The notes: generated by a model not told the origin, from the sequence alone. A DNA stretch of 64,000 nucleotides from Blastocatellia bacterium (GCA_016713405.1 JADJPF010000015.1:1-64000), one strand, 5' to 3'. Shown: positions 1 to 35,865, numbered from the stretch's first letter. Translations and numbers: made by a program.

Positions 1-436
1 CACCATAAAGTAAATATTTAATTTTGATGTTCTTAGCAACTCGTAAATATGAAATAGCTAGTAGTGATAAAACAGGTAGTGAGCGAAAACTATGAGTTAT
101 GTCAAAAGCAACTTCGTCATTTTGATTAATAGATTCTGTAAGATTAGAAAATATATCCCAAAGCTCATTTTCGCTACTTCCATTAGGAATATTTATGGGT
201 TCAATAGATTGGCCTTCAAATTTTGTTTCTAACAAATTTTTTAACTCAGTCCAATTATTATGTTTTTGAACAGTTTCTGTTAAAACTATTAGAATTTTTT
301 CTGGTTTAAGCCAGCTAATAACAGCTTCAGAAAAAAACTTTGTTTTATATTCTAACTTCTTTGATGCGTCTTTTTCCCAAAAATAATTTGTTTCTTGATA
401 GTTACCTGTACCTACAAGAAATGTAATTAATTTCAT
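1..436 (-). CDS. csx1: CARF-domain CRISPR ancillary protein (Csx1/Csm6 family), N-terminal 145 aa; 3' part lies beyond the window start
   Basis: Minus-strand translation from the ATG at 436: MKLITFLVGTGNYQETNYFWEK...DEVAFDITHSFRSLPVLSLLAISYL. It shows the CARF hallmarks (N-terminal FLGTGNY beta-strand, D-x-THGFR-like 'DITHSFRS' motif). It is not in the ORF track because no stop is reached inside the window. It sits directly downstream of cmr6 on the same strand. Confidence 0.7.
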   Translation of the reverse strand, partial: MKLITFLVGTGNYQETNYFWEKDASKKLEYKTKFFSEAVISWLKPEKILIVLTETVQKHNNWTELKNLLETKFEGQSIEPINIPNGSSENELWDIFSNLTESINQNDEVAFDITHSFRSLPVLSLLAISYLRVAKNIKIKYLLYG

Positions 437-474
437 AAAATATACTCCAAAAATTTATAAATCATTTCAAATGT

Positions 475-1519
475 TCAACTAGCAGAATAATTTTTAAACT
501 TTTCATACCAATGTTTATCTTTAAACTTTTTCTTATCAACTTCGTCGGCTCTTTTTATTATTACTTCAGCCACTTTTAGTTTTTGACTAGGTTCTGTTAT
601 ATCTTCCCATTTTTTAATATAATTGCCAATTTCACCAGCAAATCTATTATTTGGTAAATTATTAATTGCCATTATCATAGGATCTTCTATTTTAGTTTCT
701 TTTTTTTCTAATACTGCTACTGACTGATTTTCTACAGATATTTTTCTTTCAGGAATTTCTAATTCCATACGACCATATCCGCTAGATGTTTTTGCTCCAA
801 CACCTAATTCTTTTAATGCTTCTTTTAGTATGTCAAAAGTTAAACTTACCCAATCTTCTGGGCCTGATAATGCAATTAAATATTCTCCTGTAGCAGTAAG
901 AAATGAAATAGGCGTTGTGCTGTCCCAATCTGCTGGTTGCAAGATTTTTATCTTGATAATAATCTTGGTGGTGGACTGTGATTACATCAGCATGTAAAGC
1001 TTGTTTATTAATTCCACTATCAGGAACATAAAGCGCGTCATAAAATGTAACAAAACCTGCTGCTTCTTTATTATTTTGATCATCTGCGGAAGTACCAAAG
1101 ACAGTTGCATAATTAGGAGAAGTTTTTTCCCAACCTTGTAAATAATCTCTTGCATAACTAGCTGTTACACCTTTTAATGCACTAGCAGGGATATAAGGCA
1201 CGCCATAAGTATGATGTAGCTTTATGGAAGTTTCTAAAACGCTTTCTGTGCCAAGCCCAACAGCCATACGGCCTTGAACCGTAGCTTTACCAGTTTGCAC
1301 ATCTGAAATTTGCTCTAAAGTTTGCTTCCAGCGTTGATAAAATTTTGTGTAAATTTCTGGTTGAGAAATTGTTCCTACTTCATTGACTAATCTAGTTTTT
1401 GGTTGCTCATTGTTATTGGTTGATTCCTGTTGAGTTGTAAGAAATTTATCTAGCCAAAGACCTGCATGGTTAGCTATTGATTTATCTAAATTAACAAAGA
1501 CATTTCGACAACTATTCAT
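475..1519 (-). CDS. cmr6: Cmr6 (RAMP, Cas7 group), split into ORFs 833..1519 and 475..942 by a +1 frameshift at an A5 run
   Basis: N-terminal ORF has the RAMP core (GLGTESVLETS..IPASALKGVTASYARDY). The C-terminal ORF carries the G-rich loop (GVGAKTSSGYGRMEL). The sequence continues ...VITVHHQDYYQDK | ILQPADWDS across 'gataaaaatcttgca'. Removing one A from the A5 restores the frame. About 100 aa of Lys-rich sequence follow the G-rich loop. Confidence 0.8.
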
Positions 1520-1540
1520 AAATATTTCCTTGTAAGTTTT

Positions 1541-1894
1541 TTAATTATCTTTTTCCTCTAACAAGCTTTGTGAAAGGCGTTTGTACCAAGACAAGGCATC
1601 TAAAACATCTTTAGTTAATTTCATATATTCGGCTAAATTTGCTTCACGGCTTTGTTTTAGTAAATCATCTTTGTTGCTGTTAGTGTTCAGTGTTTTAGCT
1701 AAGTCTTCCAGCAAAAAAGCACCATTTTTAGCATTAGCAAAAGCTAAGGCTTGAGCTAGACCAGCAGTATGGATTAACACAGGGAGTTTATCTGCCATTG
1801 TTTTGTATTTGTCTTTTTTTTCTTTAGATTCTGTAGCAACTTGGCTAACGTGTCCATAAGCACTGCTTGCATATTTTTGATTTCGTGTTGGCAT
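1541..1894 (-). CDS. cmr5: Cmr5 (small alpha-helical Cas11-group subunit of the Cmr complex)
   Basis: 117 aa. 'YKTMADKLPVLIHTAGLAQALAFANAK' aligns with the conserved Cmr5 helix (P. furiosus '[27 protein letters not shown]'). 'ALSWYKRLS' matches the C-terminal helix. It lies between cmr4 and cmr6, as expected. Confidence 0.8.
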   Translation of the reverse strand: MPTRNQKYASSAYGHVSQVATESKEKKDKYKTMADKLPVLIHTAGLAQALAFANAKNGAFLLEDLAKTLNTNSNKDDLLKQSREANLAEYMKLTKDVLDALSWYKRLSQSLLEEKDN

Positions 1895-1912
1895 AGTTTT
1901 TTTCCTCCTAAC

Positions 1913-2799
1913 TTACTGGTTTATTAATTTGACTGAGCATAAGCCATGACCAACGGTTGCTTTACCGCCAAATTGCACAGTTTTGTTAGTTATTGTTGTA
2001 ATAGCTTCAAAGACTTTGTTGGTAGTTATCTCTGCTTTCTTAGTAGGGTTAGCAATGACTAAGCCAGACAAAATTGTTTCTGTTGGCAAGGTTTCTTCAT
2101 ACCAAAGATTTTCTGCTGTTTTAGATTCATCATTTATAACAATTCTTGCAGAAACTTCTGTTGCAGTTTCTAACAAAAGCTTAATAAATCGTCTGAGACA
2201 ATACAAAAACGTGCTTTAAGCATATCTTGCCATTCTGGAGAGTCAGCAAAAATTCTTGGTGCTAGCCAATCAGCCCAATTGCTAGCTTTTACAACTTCAG
2301 TATTATTATTGCTTGGAGTTAAATCTAAATCTTCTAAAAATACCTTGCTATTATTGTTAACACCATGTTTTAGACAACTAGTTGTTATTACTAAACAAGA
2401 GGTTTCTTGTAATGTTTTTGGGGTTTCAGGCAATTTATTTATTCCTGCTACCTTAGCATCACGAACAAATCTTTGTAGAATGTAAGGCGAAGTCACCCAA
2501 GCAAACGTTCCTACAAGGCTACGAATAGGCAGCAACAACAAACGTTGATCAGAAAATTGCACAGATCCAGCATGTTCCATAGTTTGAGATTTTTCTTCAT
2601 TCCCAGTTCCAAAAATACTTTTTTGTTGTTTTTCGTCTGTGCAAAGATCTCGCAAACTACCTTTTACAGATGAACCTGGCAAAAAAGGTATTCCAGTAGC
2701 TTTTTCTCTAGCGATAGGCAAATCAATTACACCAATTCCTTGGCCTGTGCCAGCGTGCAAAGGCGATAGTGCATGGACAAAAGCTAAACGCGCTTCCAT
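1913..2799 (-). CDS. cmr4: Cmr4 (Cas7 backbone RAMP), split into ORFs 2170..2799 and 1913..2206 by a frameshift at 'acaaaaacg'
   Basis: N-terminus MEARLAFVHALSPLHAGTGQGIGVIDLPIAREKATGIPFLPGSSVKGSLRDLC is the canonical Cmr4 start (TPLHxGxG...IDLPI.RE..TG.P.IPGSS.KG.LR). The C-terminal fragment carries GKATVGHGLC (G-rich loop). The break lies in an A5 run. Confidence 0.85.
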
Positions 2800-2813
2800 A
2801 AAATTTCTCCTTG

Positions 2814-4080
2814 TTAATTTTGTTTAGTAAGAAAATCAAGAAATGCTTTAAGTATATTAGTTTCTTTATTTAATAATGGGGTTCCATTACTTCTTGTTAT
2901 TTTAAGTGCTTCTTGTTCTGTAAGGTTAATTTGGACATTTTTTGGCTGATTCCAATTATTAGCTTTTAAGACCACTTGATTATTAATCGCTTGTTGAGTA
3001 CCTTCTAAAACCGCAGCTAAACCTACATAACCATTGCTACATTTGATTGGCCGCAAAATAAGAGGACTAGCTAATCTATCAGAGTTTTTTAGAGCAAGTG
3101 TTGTATCTTGTGGATCACTAGTTTTATATCTGTTCCCATCCTTAAAATGAAAAATTATTGGTAAACCAAAAACTGCACGAGGAAATTTATTAACAGGATG
3201 TGTTGGATTATGATCTTTATTTTGGTTAACTAAATGTTGTCCTGTTAATCGCCTAATAGCATCTGGTTCAGGCCATCGGCTACGGCCTTGGTTCCCGTTG
3301 CGTTGTTGGCGAAAAATTTTTAGTTTACTGATTAAAATGTTACTGGCTTCTTTACCATTAGCAAAAGTTGTTGGAAGAATCTTAAATTCTAGCTTATGGC
3401 TTAAATGAGGAACATTTTGAGGCCAATTTGTAGAATCAATAACATGTTTTTTTAAGCCTGCACGAATATTATTTTCTACATCTTTTGTACTAATCTCTTT
3501 TGATTTCATAGAGATAGCTCCAAATCCGCGTCTAGTTCTTGCTCCAATGCCGCCAAATGTTTCCCAAGCCCAAAAAGCAGCTTCTACATCAGTTTGTAAA
3601 TCTTTTGGATATTTAATGCTTAATTTAAAAGTAATGTTATCTCTGAGTTTTTGTTTTCTTGTCTTAAAGCAAAAGCTGCATAAGGGTTAACATCCTTTGC
3701 AGATTGAATAAGTTCTAACACCTTGATAGTTGTTTCAACAAAAACTTGTACTTTTGAAGCAGGCTTTTCACCTTTTTTATCTTTGCTAGCTGTTCCCCAA
3801 ATCGCATCTTCTGCTCTTTTCATTTGTTCTAAGTTTGCAATGCCCCACCACGACAAGCACGCCACCAAAAAAGAAGTTGCCCACGAATGCTTGAACCACG
3901 AATTGTTGTTATTGGGTCGGCTTCGCCCGGCTTTACTCCACCACCAAACAAAGGTGTGATTAATTCATATTTACGTTCTTGAGTAATGTTTGATTCCTTA
4001 AGTGGAGGAAATTTTGGGCATTCAACCTTTGGTTTTCTATTCATTATTTCACCTCCATTATTTCGTTTTTTCCTGACCAA
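2814..4080 (-). CDS. cmr1: Cmr1-like double-RAMP subunit, in three pieces (3829..4080, 3620..3868, 2814..3509)
   Basis: N-terminal piece: ITPLFGGG..ITTIRGSSIRGQLLFWWRA (RAMP motif). Translating between pieces 2 and 3 recovers ...AAFWAWETFGGIGARTRRGFGAISMKSKE. That is the G-rich loop of the first RAMP domain, in a frame offset by 1 from piece 2. The total of about 420 aa fits Cmr1. Both breaks sit at short homopolymers. Confidence 0.65.
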
Positions 4081-5234
4081 GTGCCTAGCACGGCTAAACC
4101 AAAACTGTCTAAGCGGCTTTGTTCATCGTCGCTAACTGAACTTAACCAGATTTTGTCAACCCAGTTTTCTAACTCTTTTTCATTTGTCGTCTTCTCATCA
4201 AACTTTAAGAAAAACACTGTTCCAGCAGGTGCCAAGCGTCGTGTAGCTTTAGGCTTGTTAGTTTCAAAGTCCCAGCCAGAGATGACTTGAGGACGCTCTA
4301 CACGAATGGCTTTTATTTGTGGAGTTAAAGTTTTGTGAGGTGTTATCAAATATTCAGGTTGACAAATATCCTTAAAACAGCCTGGCGTTAACAGCAACAC
4401 TCTACAAGCTTTTGTGCAAAGAATTTGTTTTTTAATTTGGTCAGGACATTTAGCAAAAGGTATTGAATCGTTGTTTTTATGCCAATTGACTATTCGCCTT
4501 TCACCACCAAGCATGGCAACACCTTCGCGTAAATTAGCCTCAGTTTGCACAGCTAAAGCAAGACGAGTTAAATTAGCAAGCTTTTTATCAGCTTGTTTTT
4601 GATAAGTAAATTCTAAGCCTTGTGTTTGAAATAACGCGCCTTCTCTAGCAGTTTGGCTTTCATTCAAAATGCTTACATGTGTTCGTATATCTAAACTTGG
4701 GCCTTTATGCCCAAGATCAGAGAGATTAACATCTAGCTTATCTTGAGCGTTATTTAACCACTCTTCAAGTTTTTTCCAATACCAAAATCTTGGTGGAGGT
4801 TTATGAGGTTTTCTGTTGTCGCTTTGAGTCATGCCAACCAAAGAAAGGTTTGGAAAATCTGTTTGTAGATCAGTAAAACTATTTTCAGGCATGTTTATTG
4901 GTACAAGTTTTTTTATATTAACTGTAGTTTCATTATTTGAATCATTGTTAAGAATTACTAAATCCATTGGTGCAGGCATTAACCAATTTTGAATGCTTCC
5001 TGTTTCAGCAAGTTCAACTAAAAATGGCCCTTTAATAGCAATTTTTTTAACTTCACTAATTTTTCCTTTTTGGAAATTTCCTTGTGCATCTAGTCCAGCA
5101 CGGGTACGAACTCCGCCAGCAATCGTTGATGGGAAAGGAAAACTTAAGCTAGCGGCTCTCGCACCAGGATCACCAAATGGACGACCATCACGAAAAATTA
5201 TTGGATCACGGGGTTCAAGTATCCAAACAGTCAT
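4044..5234 (-). CDS. cmr3: Cmr3 (Cas5-group subunit), intact 396 aa
   Basis: Starts MTVWILEPRDPIIFRDGRPFGDPG, the signature Cmr3 N-terminus (PxDPLxFRDGRPF). Uninterrupted ORF, 4 nt after the cas10 stop. Confidence 0.85.
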   Translation of the reverse strand: MTVWILEPRDPIIFRDGRPFGDPGARAASLSFPFPSTIAGGVRTRAGLDAQGNFQKGKISEVKKIAIKGPFLVELAETGSIQNWLMPAPMDLVILNNDSNNETTVNIKKLVPINMPENSFTDLQTDFPNLSLVGMTQSDNRKPHKPPPRFWYWKKLEEWLNNAQDKLDVNLSDLGHKGPSLDIRTHVSILNESQTAREGALFQTQGLEFTYQKQADKKLANLTRLALAVQTEANLREGVAMLGGERRIVNWHKNNDSIPFAKCPDQIKKQILCTKACRVLLLTPGCFKDICQPEYLITPHKTLTPQIKAIRVERPQVISGWDFETNKPKATRRLAPAGTVFFLKFDEKTTNEKELENWVDKIWLSSVSDDEQSRLDSFGLAVLGTWSGKNEIMEVK

Positions 5235-5237
5235 ATG

Positions 5238-6743
5238 CTATTTTTCCTTTCCTATTAATTTTTTAACTTCAGCAAAAATGCGAGCAACTACAAGTTCATC
5301 AGCTAGATCTTTGATGGAAACTTTGTCTTCATCAATTCTTTTTTCAATGTTTGTTAAAACATCTTTATCTACTTTTTTGCGTCTAAAAATTCTTTTCGCT
5401 TCTACTTTAATTAAATCTTTTAAGTTAGCTGTATCACCTAAACTTAAAACTAAATCTCTTAATTCATAAGCCACCCCGTCAGGAATTTGACCATTTGCAT
5501 GCAATGTGATCCAATTTTTTAGACGGTCATCTATTTCGCCCCCAACTTTGCACAATCTAAAATTGTATGTATTGGCACAAACGCTAGCACATCATCGCCA
5601 CCAGCATAAACAAGTGAGCCTTTATGCTCTGCTACAATTCTTCGGACATTGCTAGCAAATCGACTTAGAGCGTTAGAAATATTTCTGTGTGCTTCTGGAG
5701 TGTTTTGGCTGTCAATAGCTTCACCCATTCGATCACCATCAGCTAAAAGCAGCCCGTAATAGGGGCTTGGGCGTTTGTCAGCAAGATTGCAACTTTTATA
5801 AAATTCGTTTAGTGCTTTTTTAGCTTGTTTTAGTTTCTCATCTTCATTTTTAGCAAAAAAATCAACTAATCTTTCTTCAAACAAAATATGTCCATCATAA
5901 TTTTCAAAAACAGGATGAGGATCTCGTGGCACATTTCCCAGTTCACTTTCAAGACCAAAATCTTGTTTTAAGGTAAGAATATATTTTCTTACAGCAGTTT
6001 TATGCTCTTCTTTTAGCAATTCTAAAAATGGCAAAGATGCTACGTGAGATGTAGAAAAGAATCTATCTTTCCCTTTCGCCGTTCTCCATGACGTTTTAAT
6101 AAGCCTACTACCCGCAAAGCTTTTCACCTCGACCAATACCATATTTACGCCAAAGTTTTTCATCATCAAATCGGTCATATTGTTTTTCAGGAATAACAGA
6201 TTCACGTTGTCCATCTAGCGACGATTTTGGCACACCTGCTTTTCCCCAAGAAACAGCATTGTAATTTTTAGTAGCTTTTCGTGCGGCCATTAAAGCTTCT
6301 GCTTGCTTGCGAGTTTCAACATATTTTTCTAAGCTCTCTAATTTTGTAGCTACCCAGAAAAACTCTAGCATGTCCGCTATTTGTGCATCTGCGGTTTTAT
6401 TATCAAAATATCCTCGAAGATTTTTCAAGCCATCTTCTTTAATTTCATTAAGTCGAGTTTTTACATTAGTTAGAGCTTGTTTACAAATTTCTTCAGGATT
6501 ATTTTTAACAATTGCTACTATTTTGTTTGCAACATCAAAACTAATATCAGGCTCTAAATCAGATAATTCTGTTGGAGCAGGGAAAATTAAGTTCTCAATG
6601 CCTTCTTTTTCCGCAATGCTATGAGCAGCCGTTTTTGAAAGCTCACTAAGTAGCCAAGAACCAAACCAAAGATCCCGACTTCGCCTAGCAGTGATAATAA
6701 AATCCTGCACTGGGCCGATATGAATAATAATTAAGTATTCCAT
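5238..6743 (-). CDS. cas10: Cas10/Cmr2 large subunit without an HD nuclease domain, in three ORFs (6108..6743, 5531..6214, 5238..5555) from two frameshifts
   Basis: ORF 1 starts MEYLIIIHIGPVQDFIITARRSRDLWFGSWLLSEL (Cmr2 N-terminal IGPVQ.FI..AR..RDLW.GS.LLS motif). ORF 2 has the palm/cyclase motifs YYGLLLADGDRMG and LVYAGGDDVLAFVP (GGDD). ORF 3 is the helical C-terminal domain. About 500 aa in all. The upstream region is AT-rich and non-coding, so there is no HD domain. Confidence 0.8.
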
Positions 6744-7209
6744 AGCACAACCTGTAAATGAAAGTTGATTAAATTGTTATTATGAAAAAGTAATATGCTA
6801 TTTTTGCTAGACGCAAAATTTACATAACTTTTTACTAATAATCAACTACTTAATCTTAAAAAGATAAAATTACTATTTATAGCTTTTTAACTAAAGCATT
6901 ATTTGTATTTTTATTGGGATTCTAAAACAAAATTGGCAGATTAAAAGAGCCAGCAAGCTTGCTGAGTGGAAAATTTTTAGGGTTTATGTTGTCTATTTAG
7001 CTACTCTCATTTTCTGACTGCTGCTAAATTCCCAAACTCTAGTTAATCCTTGGGAAATGTAAGTAATATAGATTCGTGAGAGTTTTTTAGAGTTTTTTGA
7101 CATTTTTTTCATAGAACTTTTTTGCAGGTTAAGCAAAAACACCCAAATTATGCTAGGAATATATCTTGCATGTTAAATGGGTTAGCATGATTATGGAGGT
7201 TAAACTGTT
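6744..7209. promoter_or_regulatory. AT-rich divergent intergenic region. It is probably the promoter of the cmr operon (minus strand) and of the 7210 ORF (plus strand)
   Basis: 466 bp with no ORF. Very AT-rich. It sits between divergently oriented genes. No direct repeats of the CRISPR type were seen. Confidence 0.35.
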
Positions 7210-7974
7210 ATGAAAAAGGTAATAAGCTTGTTGATCTCTAGAATAGCTATTATTAGTTCTCTAATAATAGCTACTACGCTAGGTGTAACAGCACAGTGGA
7301 ACAACCCGTATTGGGGAACAAGTTGGAATAATCCTACATCAAGCCTACTGCAAACTATGACTATGAATAAAGTTTTTGCCGATAGTATGAGAAAACCGTT
7401 TGAGCAAAGAGGCAAAGCTTTAGATCAAAGGTCGATACCAAAGCAAAATAAACTTACTCCATACCAGCAAAAATCTGTAACTTTCTCGCCTGTTGCTAAT
7501 ATGATTATGCCAAAACAGCTAGCTGAAACGATTGGAGCAACACCCAAGGATCGCAAAGAACTTCAAAAAGCATTTACCGAATTTTTGCAGGTTTTCGACC
7601 AGGAAGCCGCTTTAGACAAAGAAGAAAATAATGTTGCTCGTGCAGTCACTTTTTTTATTGTTTGCAACTACATTGTTGCTACAGGCTTGGAGTTTGAGGA
7701 AGAACAGATCAATTTTATGGAGAGAGATATAAATATTTACCTAGCAGAAAACGAGTATTTTTGCGCCTTTGATAACCACAGGAAGCAAGAACTTTATGAA
7801 AGCTTGGTCATTCTTGGCACCCTTGCTGCCGCAGGCTATCATGACGGAGAGGAAAACGGACGAAAAGAGCAAATGGAGAGATTCCGCTCTTTAGCACGTA
7901 ATGGCTTGGAAACCTTGCTAGGTGTACCTGTTGAGAGGTTGAAATTGACAAAAGTAGGGTTGGTTATTAAATAG
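7210..7974 (+). CDS. Hypothetical secreted protein
   Basis: 254 aa. N-terminal signal-like hydrophobic stretch MKKVISLLISRIAIISSLIIATTLGVTAQ. No recognisable domain. Confidence 0.5.
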   Translation: MKKVISLLISRIAIISSLIIATTLGVTAQWNNPYWGTSWNNPTSSLLQTMTMNKVFADSMRKPFEQRGKALDQRSIPKQNKLTPYQQKSVTFSPVANMIMPKQLAETIGATPKDRKELQKAFTEFLQVFDQEAALDKEENNVARAVTFFIVCNYIVATGLEFEEEQINFMERDINIYLAENEYFCAFDNHRKQELYESLVILGTLAAAGYHDGEENGRKEQMERFRSLARNGLETLLGVPVERLKLTKVGLVIK

Positions 7975-8243
7975 TTTTACTTCTGCTCGAATAATCCATT
8001 TCTATCAGATTTGCCTTTTTAATGTCTTCTTGTTTTTTTCCTTAACTCTAACAGAAATAGAATAAAGGGAAACAAAAGGATATTACGATACAACTCAATA
8101 AGCAAATCATACAAAATCAATAGTTTATCTATTAAAACATCTCAATTCTTGAGAGTTTTCTAATGATTAAGTAGTTTTATCTAAAATCAAAAATGCAGCC
8201 GTGCTACAAACAACAGGACTAAATTTTGACCATGCTGGCTATA

Positions 8244-9092
8244 TTATTGCTTGACCAGTTCTACACGACGGTTTTTTGCGCGACCTTCTTCGGTATCGTT
8301 GCTTGCCATAGGAGCTAAGGGGCCGACACCGCGGCTAATAAGGCGACTTGCAGAAATACCGTGTTGTGTAATGAGTGCTTGCACTACTGCTTCAGCACGG
8401 GCATGGGAAAGCCTCATATTTAGATCCAGCGAAGCAATATTATCTGTATGACCTACTACATAGACCTTCAATGCTAAGTCTGCTTTCAGCAATTTGGCAA
8501 TTTCGGTTACGGCGTTGTCTGATTCAGGTTTCAACTCAGATTTTCCTGTGTCAAAGTAAATTCCTGGAACCTCAACGTGTCCACTAGTTCTAAGGCTAGT
8601 TTTAAAGATTTCTGCACTTGAAGTTACTTCCTGGGTCATTGCTTCCTTTTCGATAATGGTTAGCATATAGCCTTTTCCCCAAGCAGTGTCAAGCAATGCC
8701 CAGACTTCCTTACCATTCTTAGCTACTTTCAGAACTGTATAGCGTTTATCTTCAAAAAGTGTTGTTCCACCGATTTGAGCGATAGCTTGCTGATGATTAC
8801 GTATGATCTGCAAGGGTGAAGGGGCTACTGTAGCATCAGTCTTATATCTAATTTCAAAGCGTTTTCCTTCTACAGCAGTTTCGGTTGTCTTTCCAGTTTT
8901 AAAAGCAAATCGGTCAAAAGCGACTGTTTTGCAATATTCTATATGCATGTCCTGCATGCGAGTAAAAAGCGGATGGTCTTGGCAGCCAGCTTTATCTGGA
9001 CTCTGAGACAATACAATACTACAAAACAAAAAAATCCAAATGATGAGAACATGGATGGAAACCAATAGAGATTTTAATTTAGTACATTGCAT
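8244..9092 (-). CDS. OmpA/MotB-family peptidoglycan-binding protein
   Basis: C-terminus VYVVGHTDNIAS..NMRLSHARAEAVVQALI..GISASRLISRGVGPLAPMASNDTEEGRAKNRRVELV is the canonical OmpA_C domain. N-terminal TM/signal segment. Confidence 0.8.
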   Translation of the reverse strand: MQCTKLKSLLVSIHVLIIWIFLFCSIVLSQSPDKAGCQDHPLFTRMQDMHIEYCKTVAFDRFAFKTGKTTETAVEGKRFEIRYKTDATVAPSPLQIIRNHQQAIAQIGGTTLFEDKRYTVLKVAKNGKEVWALLDTAWGKGYMLTIIEKEAMTQEVTSSAEIFKTSLRTSGHVEVPGIYFDTGKSELKPESDNAVTEIAKLLKADLALKVYVVGHTDNIASLDLNMRLSHARAEAVVQALITQHGISASRLISRGVGPLAPMASNDTEEGRAKNRRVELVKQ

Positions 9093-9377
9093 ATGATGCC
9101 TCCAGTCAAAAGTTGCTCATTGTTTTGCTTAATACATCAATTACTTACAATAACTACAAAAACAAGACTTCCAAAATCGTCCCACAACTTTGCTGATGTG
9201 CTTCTATACTTAAAGCAATGAGTATGCCTAATACTAAGCTTATAAAAATGGGTGGTTATATTTTGTATATGGGTTATATTTCCCAAAATTGAAGAATAAT
9301 TGGGGGAATTAACTGTAGTGATTGCAATGTCTATTGACCATATTTAATACTCCAAAGTATTTTTGTTTGAAGTTTAT

Positions 9378-10322
9378 TTATTTTCTTGCAGAGATATAAA
9401 TTTTTACAGGTGGTTGCACTTTGTACACTTGAGCAAAGTTGTTTTGGTTGATTGCTAAGGCTAAATGGCCGCGAGAATCAATGTAAAGCAGAGGTTGGTT
9501 AACTGCCACATCACTAAAGGTTTTTACAAAAGGTAAGGAAATATTTTGCTCCCCTATTTTTATATTTATTTTTTCACTAATTTTATAGCCTAGTTTATAA
9601 AAAACTTCTGCATCAACATTGGTGACTAAATTTCCATAGGGGCCATCTAGCCCGATGACCTCAGCACTTAAGCCTTTTTCATCAATTTGTGCAGCACTGA
9701 TATTAAGTTTTACTAGCTCATTAATTGGTAATATGGGCCCTACTTTAGCCCAATTTTCACCTTTTGCTATGTGTGCTGCTACAGGTGAAAAAATATCTCG
9801 GCCATGAAAAGTTGATGACAAGGCTTGACCAATCATTAATTTAGTGTTGGTAATTTCCCTTACAGCTTCTAATCCGTCTTGTTGCTCAACTAGCGTTAGC
9901 AAACCATTGTTAGGCAAAACAAAATATTGACCGCGCTTTGATTTAGCTACAATAGCTTTTCTTTCACTCCCAACACCAGGATCTATAACAACTGCAAACA
10001 CTGTTGCAGGCGGGTAATAAGCAGTTGTTCCTGCCAAAAATCGCGCTCCATCTAAAATTGAGTAAGGCGTAACTTGATGGCTAATATCAATAATTTTAAG
10101 TTTTGGTTCGATTGAAAGCATTACACCTTTACAAATTGCTACAGAATCGTCAATTACTCCAAAATCAGACATAAACAGTATTGTAGGGCTGTTAGTTTGC
10201 TGAGTTTTCGGAGTTCGCTTTGAAGTTTGATAACTGCTAGCAAAAGTCATTAAGCTAGGCGACACCAACAAATTAAAAAGAATAAAAAAAGTAGCAAAAA
10301 TAGATAAGATTAATTTTTTCAT
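9378..10322 (-). CDS. SAM hydroxide adenosyltransferase family protein (fluorinase/chlorinase-like, DUF62) with an N-terminal signal/TM segment
   Basis: ILFMSDFGVIDDSVAICKGVMLSIEPKLKIIDISHQVTPYSILDGARFL...VIDPGVGSERKAI matches the SAM_HAT N-terminal domain. The start was moved to the internal ATG (MKKLILSIFATFF...) so the gene does not overlap the upstream MFS gene. The ORF track extends it to 10406. Confidence 0.7.
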   Translation of the reverse strand: MKKLILSIFATFFILFNLLVSPSLMTFASSYQTSKRTPKTQQTNSPTILFMSDFGVIDDSVAICKGVMLSIEPKLKIIDISHQVTPYSILDGARFLAGTTAYYPPATVFAVVIDPGVGSERKAIVAKSKRGQYFVLPNNGLLTLVEQQDGLEAVREITNTKLMIGQALSSTFHGRDIFSPVAAHIAKGENWAKVGPILPINELVKLNISAAQIDEKGLSAEVIGLDGPYGNLVTNVDAEVFYKLGYKISEKINIKIGEQNISLPFVKTFSDVAVNQPLLYIDSRGHLALAINQNNFAQVYKVQPPVKIYISARK

Positions 10323-16903: not shown

Positions 16904-17686
16904 TTAATTTTGTTGTGTTGTGGGTTCTGCTGTCTCTACAGGTTTAGTTATTTCAGTAGTTCTATTCAGTAATATATCTGCATCTAATCTAACTTGTAAG
17001 CGTGAACCAGATAATAATTCAATATCACGTCCTCTTGCTAATAACACTCCACCTAAACCAACTCCAGCACCAATGCCAGCACCAATACCAGCACCAGCAG
17101 CACCTCCAGTAATTGCACCAATACCAGCACCTATGCCAGTTTGAGTTGCTACTGTTCCAGCTTTACTTTTTCCTTTGCTTGGATCTTTTATTTTACCTTC
17201 TCCATCTTCTTCTACTACTTGATCAGTGCGGTTAATCACAGAAAAAAGAGAAGCTTTCAAAGGAATTTTTGTTCCATCATCTAAAATTAGTTCATCAAAA
17301 CCAATGGTTAAAGATCCATTTTTTCCCTTACGTGCTGCTGCTTCAACATTTATTATGTGGCATTTAACCGATGCTCTAGTAAGTGCTAGTTTATCCTTAA
17401 CAAATACTGGTTCAGATAATCTAACAATAAACTCTTCACCTTTTTTATTAGTTTTTGAGCTTAAAGATTGATCTAAATGTAGGTTTAACAAAGTATTTTT
17501 AGGGATTTTGTCAGCAGTTGGAGTGTTTGAAGGAATTGAAGTGCTATTACTATTGCTACGGGAAAGAGAATTAGGAGTGTTACTATCACGAGATTTTACA
17601 CGTCCAGATTGAGCAAAAACATTAGCTGAAAAAAGATTGGCTATTAAAAAAAGAGTAAAAGATAAAGATAATTTTTTTAATGACAT
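16904..17686 (-). CDS. Secreted glycine-zipper protein
   Basis: Signal peptide MSLKKLSLSFTLFLIANLFSANVFAQ. Ser/Thr/Asn-rich linker. C-terminal GIGAGIGAITGGAAGAGIGAGIGAGVGLGG glycine-zipper. Confidence 0.55.
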   Translation of the reverse strand: MSLKKLSLSFTLFLIANLFSANVFAQSGRVKSRDSNTPNSLSRSNSNSTSIPSNTPTADKIPKNTLLNLHLDQSLSSKTNKKGEEFIVRLSEPVFVKDKLALTRASVKCHIINVEAAARKGKNGSLTIGFDELILDDGTKIPLKASLFSVINRTDQVVEEDGEGKIKDPSKGKSKAGTVATQTGIGAGIGAITGGAAGAGIGAGIGAGVGLGGVLLARGRDIELLSGSRLQVRLDADILLNRTTEITKPVETAEPTTQQN

Positions 17687-28626: not shown

Positions 28627-31600
28627 ATGGGGCAAGCTAATAACGCTACTTTAGCTGCTGATACACTTATAGCTGATAAATATAGAGTTATTGAGCTTAT
28701 TGGTTATGGTGGTGTAGGAGAAGTCTACTTAGCGAAAGATGAAAAAATACAACGACTTGCAGCTATAAAATTGCTTTTTAAGGAACTTAATAACGATATT
28801 GATCATAAATCTCGATTTCTTCGAGAAGCTCGGACAATTTCCTCTCTAAATCATCCTAACATTATTACCGTCTATGAAATAGGTTTTTTTGATGATCAAT
28901 TATTTATTGCTACAGAATATGTTGAAGGTCAAACACTACGCCAAATTGTAGAGAAAAAAGGGAGTTTTAAGCTAAAAGATTTTTTTAGTATTGCAATCCA
29001 ATCAATCCAAGGCTTAATGATTGCCCATCAAAATGGTATTGTTCATCGAGACTTAAAATTAGAGAATTTTATTTTGCGCTCAGATGGATTAGTAAAAATT
29101 CTAGATTTTGGCCTAGCAAAAGTTTCTGACAATTGCTCAAATACGGTTTTAAGAAGCGGTGCAGGCTTTAAGACTGATGCAGGTGTGATTTTAGGAACGC
29201 CTAATTATATGTCTCCAGAACAAGCCAAGGGGGAAGATGTAGATATAAGATCAGATATATTTTCTTTAGGATCAGTATTTTATGAGTTGTTAACAGGTAA
29301 AGTTGCTTTTGATGGCAATAGCCTAGTGCAAACCTTAATGAATTTAGCTGTATCACAGCCTCCACCAATGCCAGCAACTGTTCCTAGTAAGCTTAAAGCA
29401 GTAATAATGAGAATGCTGCAAAAATCACCAGCAGCACGCTATCAAACAATAGAACAAGTTTTAACAGAATTAGCAAGTTTATATGATGAGCTTAATTTAG
29501 CTAATAATCTTACTAATTATGTAACAACAGCCAATAAAATACCTACAGGAGTTTATAAAAAAGTTGGTACTGCTGCTTTAACCCCAACTACACCACAATA
29601 TGATCAATTTGTTGGACGTATAGAAGAACTCCAACTAATACAAACTCAAATCTTACAAATGGGTCAACAATCAGCCCATCCAATAATAATTTTATCTAAT
29701 AGTGGTGCAGGCAAGACGTTTTTATTAAGTAAGTTACAGGAAATTATTAGTCAACAAGATCTATTAGTTACATTAGTTAATCTTTTTGATCAGGATAATT
29801 TTACTCAACCTTATCAATGGATTTTACCGATGCTTGCTAATTTACTAGGCTTTCGCTTTGAAGATTCTTTAATGGATAAAAGCGGAGCATTAGCACAACG
29901 TGTTAACGCTAGAATAAAAGCTCGTTATGGTTTAACTTTGCCAGCAGAAATATGGAGTCAGAATTTAGAAACAAAACATGAAAGTGAAAAATGGCCTGTT
30001 TTTGAAGTTATTAATCAAATCCTTCAAGCTCTAGTTAAAGATAAAAAACTTCTTATCCTATTTGATAACTTACATTTAGCTAATGAGTTAAGCCTAGAGT
30101 TGATAGGTTATACAATTAGAAATAACAGTAATAAAAAAATATTTTTAGTTGCTACTACGAATTTATCAGAAATAAATCGATCAGGTAGTTTTCTTGAAGA
30201 CTGGTTTTTTAGACAAAGTAAATATGTGAAGTTTGAAATTGTTGACTTAAAATCTTTTACTTTAGAAGAAACAAAAATTTATTTTGAAGCTTTATTTCGT
30301 CAGATAGAAATTTCCGAGCGAGAGCTAAACTATATTTATCAAATTACTAATGGTAATCCTTATTACTTAAGCGAAGTTGTTCGTTTATTGGTGCAGGAAG
30401 GAAAAATACATTTAGTTGGTAGTTGGTGGCATTGCGAAGCTTTAGAAAATATTGCATTACCTAACACTATTGGAACAGCTTTACTTTATAAAATAGAGAA
30501 ATGTGACGAAGAGTTAAAAGAGTTAATTACTAAAGTTTCCATACTAGGTAATAGTTTTAGCTTTGATTTGCTTACAGAATTTTTAGAATTTGAGCCAGAA
30601 AAGCTAGAACCGTTATTAGTAGAAGCAGAAAAAGAGCATTTTATTTATGAGCAACGAAGCTCAAAAATAGATGAATATTGTTTTCAAAGCTCTGCTCTTC
30701 AACAAGTTTTGTATGATTCTCTTAGTAAACGTCAAAGGAGAAAGCTACACTCACAAGCAGCCCTAGCGATAAAGAAGATATTTCAAAATAATTTAAGGCA
30801 AGTTTTAAGCACACTTACTTTTCATCATTATGCTGCAACGGAATGGCAAGAAACTTTTTATTTTGGACAACAAGCAATAATACAATCTTTTGAACAATCT
30901 GCTTGGGGTGAAGTTGTAAAACTTGGTCAATTGGTTGAAGAAGCAGCCACAATTTTACAAGAAAATCAAGAAATTAATTTGGCTGATTTAGCTTTACTAG
31001 TAGATATAAAAAATAAACATGCTAGCGCGTTAGTAAATTTAGGTAAATTAGAGCTAGCATTGACCATAGCTCAAAGCGCGCTTCAACTAGCAGAGAAATT
31101 ACAAGATAATAATCTTCTGGCTCAAAGCTATGGAAATCTTTCACATTTTGGTTGGTATCAAGGGCGTTTCAAAGATGTAATCATTTGGGCAGAAAAAGGG
31201 TTATCTATTGCTCAAATAGCACAAAATAAATTTTGGCAACAACAGCTAAACTTGCAAACAGGCCGGGCTAAATTGCGAGTTGCTCATTACAAAGAAGCTC
31301 TATTTAATTTAACAGAAGCTTGTCGGCTAGCTGAACAACTCCAAGAAGAAAAGCTACTTGCTCATGCTCAGGTTTTTCAAGGTCTTTGTTTACAGCTTTT
31401 AGGTGAGCGTCAAAAGGGTTTTGAATTAGTTGAGAAGGGCATGGCATTAGCTAACAAATTAGGGGATTCACTCTTTTTATGCCGAGCTTATTCTATGCTT
31501 TCGGTTATGTATTTTTATGAATACAATACAGATTCTCTTAAAGAAGTTCATAAAAAAGGAGTTGTTTTATCTCGTCAAATAGGTTGGAGGCTTGGAGAGG

Positions 31601-32172
31601 TTTACCAGCATGTTTATTTAGGAAATGCTTATCTTTTTGAAATTAGTTTTGATATAGATCAGGCATCAAACCTTTTACAACATGCTTTAGCTCTTGCTTT
31701 AGAAATAGGGGACAAAGCTACTACACTTGTGATTAAACGGGGAATAGCCAAAATAGCTGCTTTAGAAGGAGATTATCATTTAGCTACCAATCAATTAAAA
31801 CAATTTGTGGCAGTGCTAAAAAGTTTTGGTGAATTGCCAGAACAAATGTTAACCCTAGAAGTACTAGCTCAAATTCAAGAATCAGCCGGAGAAAATGCAG
31901 TTGCTTATGATACTTATAATAATGCCCTAGAAATAGCTCAAAATATTGGAGCTATACATCAGCAATGGAGTATTTTACTTGGTAAAGCTCGCTGTTTGTT
32001 TAAGTTAGAAAAATTAGAGGAAGCTTTAGAGACTTTAAAATTATCAGAAAAAATAGTGAAAATTTTGTTAGAAGGTTTTACTAATGACGAAGATTCAAAA
32101 TGCTTAACTAAAGCAACTCAAAGTGTGTATCAGCTTTTAAGGCAGATTCAACTTCAAAGCTCTACAAATTAA
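28627..32172 (+). CDS. Ser/Thr protein kinase fused to a STAND/AAA+ NTPase and TPR repeats (1181 aa)
   Basis: N-terminal Hanks kinase (GYGGVGEVYLAKD, HRDLKLENF, DFGLAK, SPEQ). Walker A SNSGAGKTF after the kinase. A long C-terminal TPR-like helical array. Confidence 0.8.
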   Translation: MGQANNATLAADTLIADKYRVIELIGYGGVGEVYLAKDEKIQRLAAIKLLFKELNNDIDHKSRFLREARTISSLNHPNIITVYEIGFFDDQLFIATEYVEGQTLRQIVEKKGSFKLKDFFSIAIQSIQGLMIAHQNGIVHRDLKLENFILRSDGLVKILDFGLAKVSDNCSNTVLRSGAGFKTDAGVILGTPNYMSPEQAKGEDVDIRSDIFSLGSVFYELLTGKVAFDGNSLVQTLMNLAVSQPPPMPATVPSKLKAVIMRMLQKSPAARYQTIEQVLTELASLYDELNLANNLTNYVTTANKIPTGVYKKVGTAALTPTTPQYDQFVGRIEELQLIQTQILQMGQQSAHPIIILSNSGAGKTFLLSKLQEIISQQDLLVTLVNLFDQDNFTQPYQWILPMLANLLGFRFEDSLMDKSGALAQRVNARIKARYGLTLPAEIWSQNLETKHESEKWPVFEVINQILQALVKDKKLLILFDNLHLANELSLELIGYTIRNNSNKKIFLVATTNLSEINRSGSFLEDWFFRQSKYVKFEIVDLKSFTLEETKIYFEALFRQIEISERELNYIYQITNGNPYYLSEVVRLLVQEGKIHLVGSWWHCEALENIALPNTIGTALLYKIEKCDEELKELITKVSILGNSFSFDLLTEFLEFEPEKLEPLLVEAEKEHFIYEQRSSKIDEYCFQSSALQQVLYDSLSKRQRRKLHSQAALAIKKIFQNNLRQVLSTLTFHHYAATEWQETFYFGQQAIIQSFEQSAWGEVVKLGQLVEEAATILQENQEINLADLALLVDIKNKHASALVNLGKLELALTIAQSALQLAEKLQDNNLLAQSYGNLSHFGWYQGRFKDVIIWAEKGLSIAQIAQNKFWQQQLNLQTGRAKLRVAHYKEALFNLTEACRLAEQLQEEKLLAHAQVFQGLCLQLLGERQKGFELVEKGMALANKLGDSLFLCRAYSMLSVMYFYEYNTDSLKEVHKKGVVLSRQIGWRLGEVYQHVYLGNAYLFEISFDIDQASNLLQHALALALEIGDKATTLVIKRGIAKIAALEGDYHLATNQLKQFVAVLKSFGELPEQMLTLEVLAQIQESAGENAVAYDTYNNALEIAQNIGAIHQQWSILLGKARCLFKLEKLEEALETLKLSEKIVKILLEGFTNDEDSKCLTKATQSVYQLLRQIQLQSSTN

Positions 32173-33380: not shown

Positions 33381-34463
33381 TTAACGAGCGAAGACCAAAC
33401 TAAGTAATCTTTGCCAAAAACTTTTCTTTTGCTCAGGAGGAGGTGGAGGAGGTTTTTCTTGTTTTGGCTCTTCTTTAATAGGAATTTGCTTAATTTCTGG
33501 AACTTCTGCTGGAGCATTAGACAAAGCTTCTTCCAATTCCTGGGCTAAAACAGCAGCAGATTGTTGTCGATCTTTAGCTTGCTTAGATAAGGATCGCAAA
33601 ACAGATTGTTCTAATCTAATAGGGATTTCCGGCTTTATTTCACGAGGAGGTTTAGGTTTTGCCTGAATATGTTGCATTAGCAACATTGCTGAGGTTTTAC
33701 CAGTAAAAGGAACATTACCAGTAAGCATTTGATAGAGTATTATCCCCATACTATAAATATCAGAACGGTTATCCAATTCTAGACCTTGAGCTTGTTCAGG
33801 TGAAATATACTGAGGTGTCCCTACCACAACACCAGCACTAGTAAGATTAGGGTCTTTGCCACTTTCTTTCATTTTAGCAATAGAAAAATCTATTACTTTT
33901 ACTTTTTCTGTGTCTTTACCATAATCAAGGATCAAAATATTATCGGGTTTAAGGTCTCTATGGATAATAGATTTTTGGTGAGCAACATCAACTGCTAAAC
34001 AAACTTGGCGCATTATTTTTACTGCGCGGCTGCTTTCAATAGTAGTTTCTCTTTTTAAGACTTCTTGTAAGCTTATACCATTAATTAACTCCATAACTAG
34101 GTACAAGACATTATCTGATGTTACGCCAAAGTCCATTATAGAAATAGCATTTGGATGATTAACTGTGCGGGCAGAACGGGCTTCACGTCGAAAACGTTCT
34201 ACAGCAGTGCTATCAGTAACTAAATGTGGATGGAGAATTTTGACTGCTACGGGCAGTCCCATATGTAGATGTTTGGCTTCATAAACATTACCCATACCAC
34301 CTTTACCAATTAATCTTTCAACTTGGTATTTGGCATCTAAAACCAAACCAACAAACTTATCTGGAGATTCTTCATCATCAACTAACCTTTTGCCATCATT
34401 TGGACAAAAGACCGCTGTTTCTGCAAAAAGCTGACTGCAGGCTGGGCATTTTTTCTTGGCCAT
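33381..34463 (-). CDS. Ser/Thr protein kinase with N-terminal zinc-ribbon
   Basis: MAKKKCPACSQLFAETAVFCPNDGKRL zinc-ribbon, then Hanks kinase motifs (GKGGMGNVYEAKH, HRDLKPDNIL, DFSIAK, SPEQ). Pro-rich C-terminus. Confidence 0.8.
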   Translation of the reverse strand: MAKKKCPACSQLFAETAVFCPNDGKRLVDDEESPDKFVGLVLDAKYQVERLIGKGGMGNVYEAKHLHMGLPVAVKILHPHLVTDSTAVERFRREARSARTVNHPNAISIMDFGVTSDNVLYLVMELINGISLQEVLKRETTIESSRAVKIMRQVCLAVDVAHQKSIIHRDLKPDNILILDYGKDTEKVKVIDFSIAKMKESGKDPNLTSAGVVVGTPQYISPEQAQGLELDNRSDIYSMGIILYQMLTGNVPFTGKTSAMLLMQHIQAKPKPPREIKPEIPIRLEQSVLRSLSKQAKDRQQSAAVLAQELEEALSNAPAEVPEIKQIPIKEEPKQEKPPPPPPEQKKSFWQRLLSLVFAR

Positions 34464-34677
34464 TATCTGTTCCTGTTTTTTATTAATATATTATTATTTA
34501 ATACTGAGATTTTAATAAGCCCTATATAAGTTACGACTTTCTTAGCCAAGAATCAAGAAAATCCTGAATATAATTTAGTAAAAGAAGCTAATATGATGTT
34601 TTATTGATGTAATAATTCAGGAGTTTAGCATAGTAACCCGCTAAAAATTAATAAAAATTAACGGGTTACTAACAAGA

Positions 34678-35865
34678 TTAGATGTTACCAATAGCGATCT
34701 GCATTTTTAAGGCACTTTGTCTTGTAAGATAAAATTTAGTTGTTCCATCTCTTCCACTTAAATTAAGAACTAAACCACCATCTTTTCCAGTTGAAATTGT
34801 GACACTAGTTCCATATTGACCGCCAAAACTACCAACAGATGTTTGTACAGCAGTAAGAGTAGGTTGACTATCAGTTCCTTTACTTAAAAGTTTTTCTAGA
34901 TCTTTTAGACCATTGTATGTAGTAATAAAGGTAATTTCTTTGTTTTCTTGTTTTATGCTGATGCGATAAGAGGTTCCTATTACTTTGTTAACAGCTTTAT
35001 AAAGCTCTAATTTTTGGCTTTGGTCAAAGGCAGAAAAAAATACTGAACGAGTAACATCGTAAACTTGCTTAATGTCTTCATCTGGATCATTATTTTTTAT
35101 TGTTGTGTTATTTGATGTTGCAGGGCGGGTATTAGGATTTGTTTTTCTTAAATCATCCATGCTCATAGCAGCAGGGGGACGGTTATTTGAATTGTTGGAT
35201 GTGTTGCTAGTAGGACGATTAGTAGCTAAATCATTAAGGGTTACACCTGGGCCTTGTAATATTGGAGTAGAGGGACGAATATAAATTAAGTTTAAGCTTG
35301 GTTCTGGTTCTTGAAAGCTTTTTCCTTCAGCTTCAGCTATTTCTATTGGAGACTTCTCAGAGTTGGCCCAAATACCTACTTTTTGTTTACGAGCTTGTGC
35401 TTCAGCAGATTTAAGTGCGCCATCAATTTGTAGGTCTTCTTTTGCTGGTGTATAAAATCCAACTCCTAGTTTTAGAAGTTCTGTGTTTGCAATATCTTTT
35501 TCTATTCCACGTGAAAAAGTAACATAAATAAGTGCGCGACCAAATTGATCTCTATGGCCTAAACTTCCATAAGCACGATCAAAAGATATTTCTATTTTTT
35601 TACCTAAAAGCAAATCTTCCGTTAAAGCACGTGCTTGATCTCCAAATGGTTGTCCTTCTTTTTTACCATGTTTAGCTTGTGGGGAGGTTATTCCTATTAA
35701 TTTGGCTACTTCACCATTATCTAATACTAAAGTGTCAGCATCTTGAACACTTATAACAACACGATTTTTCCAAGGGTCAATTTGAGCAAGTAATAAAATA
35801 GGGAAAAATAACATTGTCAAAGTTGCTAACCAAAAATTCTTGAGCATAAGCAAATCTCCAAACAC
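34678..35865 (-). CDS. Secreted SNase-like (thermonuclease) domain protein with a long C-terminal extension
   Basis: Signal/TM N-terminus, then VISVQDADTLVLDNGEVAKLIGITSPQ...FGDQARALTEDLLLGKKIEISFD...RDQFGRALIYV (staphylococcal-nuclease fold motifs). The C-terminal ~200 aa are Asn/Ser/Thr-rich. Confidence 0.65.
   Translation of the reverse strand: MFGDLLMLKNFWLATLTMLFFPILLLAQIDPWKNRVVISVQDADTLVLDNGEVAKLIGITSPQAKHGKKEGQPFGDQARALTEDLLLGKKIEISFDRAYGSLGHRDQFGRALIYVTFSRGIEKDIANTELLKLGVGFYTPAKEDLQIDGALKSAEAQARKQKVGIWANSEKSPIEIAEAEGKSFQEPEPSLNLIYIRPSTPILQGPGVTLNDLATNRPTSNTSNNSNNRPPAAMSMDDLRKTNPNTRPATSNNTTIKNNDPDEDIKQVYDVTRSVFFSAFDQSQKLELYKAVNKVIGTSYRISIKQENKEITFITTYNGLKDLEKLLSKGTDSQPTLTAVQTSVGSFGGQYGTSVTISTGKDGGLVLNLSGRDGTTKFYLTRQSALKMQIAIGNI

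Follow-up and report, generated by a model that had tools for sequence, protein, structure and literature searches.

The first 6,743 nucleotides of a Blastocatellia bacterium contig (GCA_016713405.1, JADJPF010000015.1), of which positions 1-64000 were analyzed here (64,000 nucleotides, hereafter the window), carry a type III-B (Cmr) CRISPR effector cassette and the beginning of an adjoining CARF gene, all on the minus strand in the order cas10-cmr3-cmr1-cmr4-cmr5-cmr6-CARF. The question raised by this locus is whether it encodes a working defense module or the remains of one. A first-pass annotation, made from the sequence alone, had read it as an interference-only module with an HD-less Cas10 that signals to a Csx1-type effector, and NCBIfam, Pfam and PADLOC profile searches bear out the gene content, the gene order, the HD-less Cas10 and the adjoining Csx1-type CARF gene. 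The cassette is not the intact gene set which that reading implied: cas10, cmr1, cmr4 and cmr6 each lie in two or three pieces, and only cmr3 and cmr5 are whole. We consider it moderately probable that the cassette has truly been inactivated, at least to the extent of a dead cas10, and that it represents a decaying defense cassette in a strain-variable locus.

Gene content of the cassette

The Cmr assignments were checked against their own NCBIfam profiles, and TIGR02577, TIGR01888, TIGR01894, TIGR02580, TIGR01881 and TIGR01898 all matched. The features of the cassette are as follows.

5238-6743, minus strand: cas10/cmr2, HD-less, in three open reading frame (ORF) pieces at 6743-6108 (211 amino acids [aa]), 6214-5531 (227 aa) and 5555-5238 (105 aa); TIGR02577 on the first two pieces
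4044-5234, minus strand: cmr3 (Cas5-type subunit), intact, 396 aa; TIGR01888 (2.6e-25) and PADLOC Cmr3 (1.2e-77)
2814-4080, minus strand: cmr1, in three frames at 4080-3829, 3868-3620 and ~3700-2814; TIGR01894 on the first piece
1913-2799, minus strand: cmr4 (backbone RNase subunit), in two pieces; TIGR02580
1541-1894, minus strand: cmr5 (small subunit), intact, 117 aa; TIGR01881 (3.6e-13) and PADLOC Cmr5 (2.5e-31)
475-1519, minus strand: cmr6, in two pieces at 1519-833 and 942-475; TIGR01898
1-436, minus strand: first 145 codons of a Csx1-type CARF gene (CARF2 clade, TM1812/DxTHG family), with its ATG at 436
6744-7209, no strand: AT-rich intergenic region of 466 bp between the divergent cas10 and DUF6683 genes

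A Cmr2-type Cas10 together with Cmr5, Cmr3, Cmr1, Cmr4 and Cmr6 is thus encoded in a single operon, as befits type III-B; uninterrupted coding sequences are lacking for cas10, cmr1, cmr4 and cmr6. The two largest cas10 pieces match the Cmr2 profile TIGR02577 with E = 7.8e-21 and 5.9e-31, and an intact ortholog matches PADLOC Cas10 (1.8e-106) and Cas10b (1.2e-73). No HD domain is found by Pfam in this 585-aa ortholog, which starts with Cmr2_N at residue 4 and otherwise contains only Palm2. The Cas10 translation of the window holds the motifs LLLADGDRMG and VYAGGDDVLAF, and the Cmr4 N-terminal segment GVIDLPIAREK is found in the window translation as well. In the broken genes the profile matches split exactly where the frame changes: the Cmr4 profile TIGR02580 is covered at positions 2-194 by the first piece and at 195-282 by the second, and the Cmr6 profile TIGR01898 at positions 4-132 and 134-195. 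The true start of cmr1 is probably the ATG at 4044. To the right, the cassette ends, as had been described, in a 466-bp AT-rich non-coding region; it contains no ORF of at least 60 aa, has a GC content of 0.28-0.31, is 99.6% identical to its counterpart in the close relative L003 (below), and is presumed to be a candidate promoter region.

Lesions in the cassette

Lesions were called by multiple DNA alignment of the window with related contigs, for which the origin, the identity to the window and the state of the cassette are given here.

L003, JGI metagenome: flanking proteins 99-100% identical, same synteny; cas10 (585 aa), cmr3, cmr1 (434 aa) and cmr4 (308-aa ORF from an upstream TTG, ~295 aa from the ATG) intact; contig ends in cmr5
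L006, Logan: Cmr3 92% identical; entire cassette intact
L005, Logan: Cmr3 85% identical; entire cassette intact
L004, Logan: Cmr3 85% identical; intact apart from a stop codon in cas10
L001, metagenome-assembled genome (MAG; CAZBMZ010000032.1): Cmr3 86% identical; cas10 intact; contig ends in cmr3
L002, Pyrinomonadales MAG: Cmr3 42% identical; same order, all genes intact
L014/L015, JGI: Cmr3 49% identical; same order
L016, Caldilineaceae: Cmr3 48% identical; cas10-cmr3-RAMP, then contig end

The position of cmr1 between cmr3 and cmr4, which had been called non-canonical, recurs in L002, L003-L006 and L014/L015, and members of this clade as a rule have cas10-cmr3-cmr1-cmr4-cmr5-cmr6 and then an accessory gene. 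The Cmr locus of Thermus thermophilus HB8 presumably has the same order as well; a literature search on T. thermophilus Cmr locus tags found nothing. The L001 record bears the title "uncultured Clostridia bacterium", but its synteny with the Blastocatellia contigs and the 84-86% identity of its Cas proteins to those of the window make this label look wrong, and it was disregarded.

The intact comparison set comprises L001, L003, L005 and L006, plus L004 except for its cas10, that is, five independent assemblies. At each of the following sites, the undisrupted state is present in every relative compared.

~6110-6111, cas10: +2 "GT", creating a TAG
~6077, cas10: A4 to A3 (-1)
~5543-5550, cas10: frame-shifting deletion of 226 bp
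~3841, cmr1: T3 to T2
~3653, cmr1: A6 to A5
2814, cmr1-cmr4 spacer: C2 to C1
2804, cmr1-cmr4 spacer: T5 to T4
~2179, cmr4: T5 to T4, with T5 in four of four relatives
~937, cmr6: +1 A (GCACC to GCAACC), the extra A being absent in L004, L005 and L006

Seven of these changes disrupt a reading frame, and they are spread over cas10, cmr1, cmr4 and cmr6. The cas10 gene is a single ORF of 580-585 aa in L001, L003, L005 and L006. In the window, the 226-bp deletion begins 12 codons past GGDD and takes out the equivalent of L003 residues ~396-473; the Palm2 profile spans L003 residues 325-456, and the deleted part, which contains a conserved "TLSVGVAIVHH...AEKAAK" stretch, corresponds to approximately its second half. 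The GGDD and ADGDRMG cyclase motifs are therefore kept, as the first-pass annotation stated, but the cyclase itself is not intact, as ~75 residues following GGDD are gone and Palm2 is incomplete. When the 434-aa Cmr1 of L003 was used as a tblastn query, it returned three high-scoring segment pairs in three frames of the window. As assembled, the window module cannot signal or work. The proposal that cyclic oligoadenylate (cOA) signals to the CARF effector fits the intact relatives, not this copy with its seven frame-disrupting lesions and half-deleted Palm2.

The cassette is also mosaic. Compared with L003, the flanks are 99.5-99.9% identical; from cas10 on, the cassette consists of blocks with 100% identity interspersed with 16 patches in which identity is 74-90%. 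Codon differences in these divergent patches run at ~1:1.4 synonymous to nonsynonymous.

Natural decay or errors of the consensus

We infer that the lesions, or at least the large deletion, are present in the organism and are not faults of the assembly. As a measure of background, the window was compared with the same-species contigs L008, L012 and L011, which are 99.6-99.9% identical over 39.5 kb. The 6.27-kb cassette holds eight small indels (1.28 per kb) as against five in those other 39.5 kb, an approximately tenfold excess (binomial p = 8e-5, Poisson p = 2e-6). Compositional bias was considered as the source of this excess and rejected, since homopolymer density is the same inside and outside the cassette. 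Neither the 226-bp deletion nor the +2 "GT" insertion is a homopolymer slip. Substitutions are elevated too: outside the divergent patches the cassette has 46 in 3.85 kb versus 14 in 5.77 kb of flanking sequence, or five times more, and the resulting ratio of 46 substitutions to ~8 small indels lies within the range for bacterial pseudogene decay. In L004, whose other cassette genes are whole, cas10 (8256-10004) has independently acquired an in-frame TGA at codon 204 (CGA to TGA), showing that natural knock-out of this cas10 does occur.

Several observations weigh against natural decay, and most of them favor the alternative that the organism has a whole, working cassette and that the frameshifts, perhaps along with the deletion, are consensus or assembly errors. 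In that case the locus would be an interference-only III-B module that receives CRISPR RNAs (crRNAs) from an array elsewhere and signals to Csx1, and the errors would cluster here since this is a contig end covered by the reads of only one strain in a mixed population. First among these observations are the five small homopolymer indels elsewhere in the window (three of them 1-bp changes within runs of 4-6 bases, another in a T2 run and the last a +2 in an A6 run), which break genes that are intact in same-species contigs of 99.85-99.9% identity:

18393: indel in a flavodoxin-like gene, 149 versus 233 aa
21089: indel in an aldo-keto reductase gene, 222 versus 367 aa
53349: indel in a gene for an NHL-repeat protein, 709 versus 759 aa
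~56853: A6 to A5 in nuoL (55894-57974), just before the conserved YSTVSQLGYM, splitting the gene into 336- and 359-aa ORFs
61751: indel in a gene for a TPR/TAtT-like protein, split versus 226 aa

At 0.1-0.2% divergence such gene damage cannot be natural, and these indels are therefore taken as consensus errors of the assembly, at ~0.13 per kb. The nuoL break in particular is almost surely an error of the consensus and can be used to gauge assembly quality; nuoL is a single 693-aa gene in the same-species contigs L007 and L008, which encode an identical NuoM. Some of the cassette frameshifts may likewise be consensus errors. Of the eight small indels in the cassette, seven add or remove one base in a mononucleotide run (five where the run is 3 or longer, one in a C2 run and one doubling a single A), and two of the eight sit in intergenic spacers. 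Nonsense substitutions, sought in the cassette as an independent sign of decay, number zero. The cassette occupies the last 6.7 kb of the contig in a strain-variable region, and coverage and consensus quality are usually worst at contig ends and in such regions; the lesions were read from assembled consensus sequences. The window contig stops inside the CARF gene, L001 breaks in cmr3 and L003 in cmr5, and three assemblies breaking within the cassette point to strain heterogeneity that troubles assemblers. Finally, the synonymous-to-nonsynonymous ratio of the patches is as expected for functional alleles.

An intact cassette would nevertheless require some special local cause for the tenfold excess of indels over background. 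A clean 226-bp deletion in conserved Palm2 and a 2-bp non-homopolymer insertion are atypical of consensus errors, and the final 930 bp of the contig, where an end effect should peak, contain two ORFs without any frameshift. We regard this alternative as possible but somewhat doubtful.

Still less probable, in our view, is that the cassette is a chimera produced by the assembler or polisher from two or more coexisting strain haplotypes, such that the patch mosaic and the deletion occur in no real genome. The abrupt switching between identical blocks and the 16 divergent patches relative to L003, beginning in cas10, could be read in this way, and the deletion falls exactly at the boundary of an identical block and a divergent patch. 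Independent assemblies are, however, mosaic relative to one another in the same manner, and in the patches where L001 can be compared (those in cas10 and in the initial two-thirds of cmr3) the sequence of the window is nearer to L001, a third natural allele, than it is to L003. The mosaic is therefore accounted for by natural recombination, and no chimera need be assumed. Expression of the split genes by programmed frameshifting, or as functional split subunits, can be virtually dismissed: most shifts fall in short homopolymers, and nothing further speaks for it, whereas it would require seven independent events across four genes, no shift is conserved in any relative, and the Palm2 core is physically gone.

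CRISPR array, Cas6 and the region beyond the contig end

No array, cas6 or adaptation genes had been seen in the first reading of the locus, and for the 64 kb this stands. Tandem Repeats Finder and direct-repeat searches revealed no CRISPR-like array in the window, the only repeats found being one of 12 nt in coding sequence and two paired hairpin repeats (see below); Pfam searches of virtually every ORF of 100 aa or longer revealed no cas6, cas1 or cas2; and tRNA and Rfam scans of the 64 kb gave no match. The window thus contains neither an array nor a Cas6 that would supply crRNAs.

Coordinate 1 is the end of an 85,471-nt Blastocatellia MAG contig. This follows from the CARF fragment being 100% identical to the 145-aa [quoted passage not shown] and Cmr3 being 100% identical to the NCBI [quoted passage not shown] of the same MAG, the former being annotated as partial. 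In the closest relatives, L004-L006, no array is found within ~5 kb beyond the accessory gene, which is followed by a convergent LonC-like protease and then a MacB-like ABC transporter. By synteny, an array just past coordinate 1 is unlikely, with the caveat that the accessory region of the window differs from that of the relatives. The proteases, of 801-825 aa (AAA_32, LonB_AAA-LID, Lon_C) and convergent to the accessory gene, lie at these positions:

L004, 15929-18334: LonC-like protease
L005, 14018-16423: LonC-like protease
L006, 8228-10705: LonC-like protease

The protease was considered as a CRISPR-linked effector and set aside; it has no PADLOC match and is present whichever CARF gene adjoins. 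It is probably a core-genome flank.

The CARF effector gene and probable recombination at the locus

The 145-aa CARF fragment contains the CARF sensor domain expected of a Csx1 protein, with matches to PADLOC CARF2 CARF_HEPN (8.9e-52), Csx1/Csm6 CARF+HEPN (4.7e-50), TIGR02221 (6.9e-27) and DxTHG (1.8e-10) and a weak match to Pfam Csx1_CARF (4.2e-4). The gene is cut by the contig end after 145 codons, and the effector half lies outside the sequence. L002 encodes a distant member of the same family, of 426 aa, in which an RNTVLH motif close to the C-terminus would fit a HEPN domain; Pfam finds no domain in the C-terminal half of this protein.

Homology of the window to its relatives ends at the cmr6 stop codon, at ~475-500, and the slot after cmr6 is occupied by different effectors:

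window, 1-436: Csx1-type CARF2-HEPN
L004, 14771-15838: CARF7-DUF2103 (2.5e-133 in L004/L006)
L006, 7078-8145: CARF7-DUF2103
L005, 12809-13927: CARF7-RelE, Cami1-like (1.4e-130)

Segments of the Cmr subunits appear to be exchanged as well. The N-terminal part of the window Cmr4 is 99.5% identical to L006 versus 82% to L003, and the Cmr1 of L006 is ~50% identical where that of L003 is 83%. The mosaic fits natural recombination among circulating functional alleles and is unlike random decay. More tentatively, and with rather less confidence than doubt, this Blastocatellia site might be viewed as a recombination hot spot that combines shuffling of short Cmr segments between strains with 99.8-100% identical flanks, swapping of cOA effectors and repeated knock-out of cas10, by deletion here and by a nonsense mutation in L004. 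If true, this would imply diversifying pressure on the complex, e.g., from anti-CRISPRs, and recurrent selection against cOA signaling.

A further polymorphism, an indel, abuts the cassette. Between cas10 and a SAM hydroxide adenosyltransferase gene the window has a DUF6683 and OmpA-family gene pair (7210-9092), which L003 and L011-L013 also possess and which the more distant L001, L004 and L005 lack, with ~250 bp in its place.

Relation to known type III-B systems

A comparison of the cassette with known III-B effector modules that have an HD-less Cas10 (~600 aa) shows the same six subunits. The proteins of PDB entries 9arw (612 aa) and 9lq5 (600 aa), deposited as "Type III-B CRISPR-associated protein Cas10/Cmr2", have the same Cmr2_N start and GGDD-containing Palm2 and no HD domain, and residues 3-537 of the intact ortholog align to 9arw with E = 5.8e-32, ortholog residue 3 corresponding to 9arw residue 21; a literature search for PDB 9ARW found no paper. 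Unlike these modules, the window copy has four frame-disrupted genes and half of Palm2 deleted. L014/L015 and L002 share with the window an identical gene order, an accessory CARF-type gene and an HD-less Cas10 (598-600 aa), with Cmr3 42-49% identical. They differ from it in possessing arrays: in L014/L015 the accessory gene is immediately followed by at least 73 repeats, and L002 has three repeats ending in ATTGAAAC, located 4.8 kb upstream of cas10 at the contig edge. Csx1/Csm6-type CARF-HEPN ribonucleases are ancillary effectors activated by cA4 or cA6; the window fragment shares their CARF sensor, and its effector half lies beyond the contig end.

By the standard mechanism, the intact relatives would draw crRNAs from an array elsewhere or nearby, and the Cmr complex would bind target RNA, which Cmr4 would cut. 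The Palm domains of Cas10 would then make cOA, and this in turn would switch on the adjoining CARF effector.

The window cassette is most likely an inactivated member of this common, known III-B clade. Stand-alone III-B cassettes are well established, as are modular CARF effectors, and the locus carries little weight for CRISPR biology in its module type, HD-less Cas10, gene order or missing local array, all of which are common. An HD domain is present in only 39% of 1113 type III loci and a cyclase in 92% (PMC11229360), so an HD-less Cas10 is the majority state, and components are shared in trans between CRISPR loci (PMC11229360). The value of the locus lies more in caution, as a cassette that is "complete" by motifs and gene order can be non-functional, and homopolymer errors in MAG assemblies blur the distinction between real cas pseudogenes and artefacts. 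What is mildly new about it is confined to the shuffling of subunit segments and effectors among strains, along with the repeated loss of cas10; strain-level mosaicism and effector swapping at a fixed site offer a modest lead on type III diversification within a species.

Other features of the window

Several features outside the cassette were recorded. The 12-nt tandem repeat (CCAGCACCAATA-like) at 17045-17152 encodes a Gly/Ala/Ile-rich repeat and is also present in L001 and L004; it lies in a 260-aa ORF on the minus strand (16904-17686) that has no Pfam match. The hairpin repeats belong to a 289-bp intergenic insertion relative to L011 at ~24285-24573, which may be a small mobile or REP-like element; the two near-identical copies, CGTAGGGTT(TC/GA)AACCCTACG, lie at 24369 and 24501, and there are no others in the window. 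A bacterial vault-like gene pair, kept in L011 and L012, encodes a protein of 778 aa that contains shoulder and repeat domains of the Major Vault Protein (21326-23662) and, near it, a 902-aa VIT and von Willebrand A protein (24842-27550). At 28627-32172 lies a gene for a Ser/Thr kinase of 1181 aa in fusion with an AAA_16 (STAND-type) ATPase and TPR repeats; genes for another kinase, of 360 aa, and for a 395-aa SNase-domain protein follow at 33381-35865.

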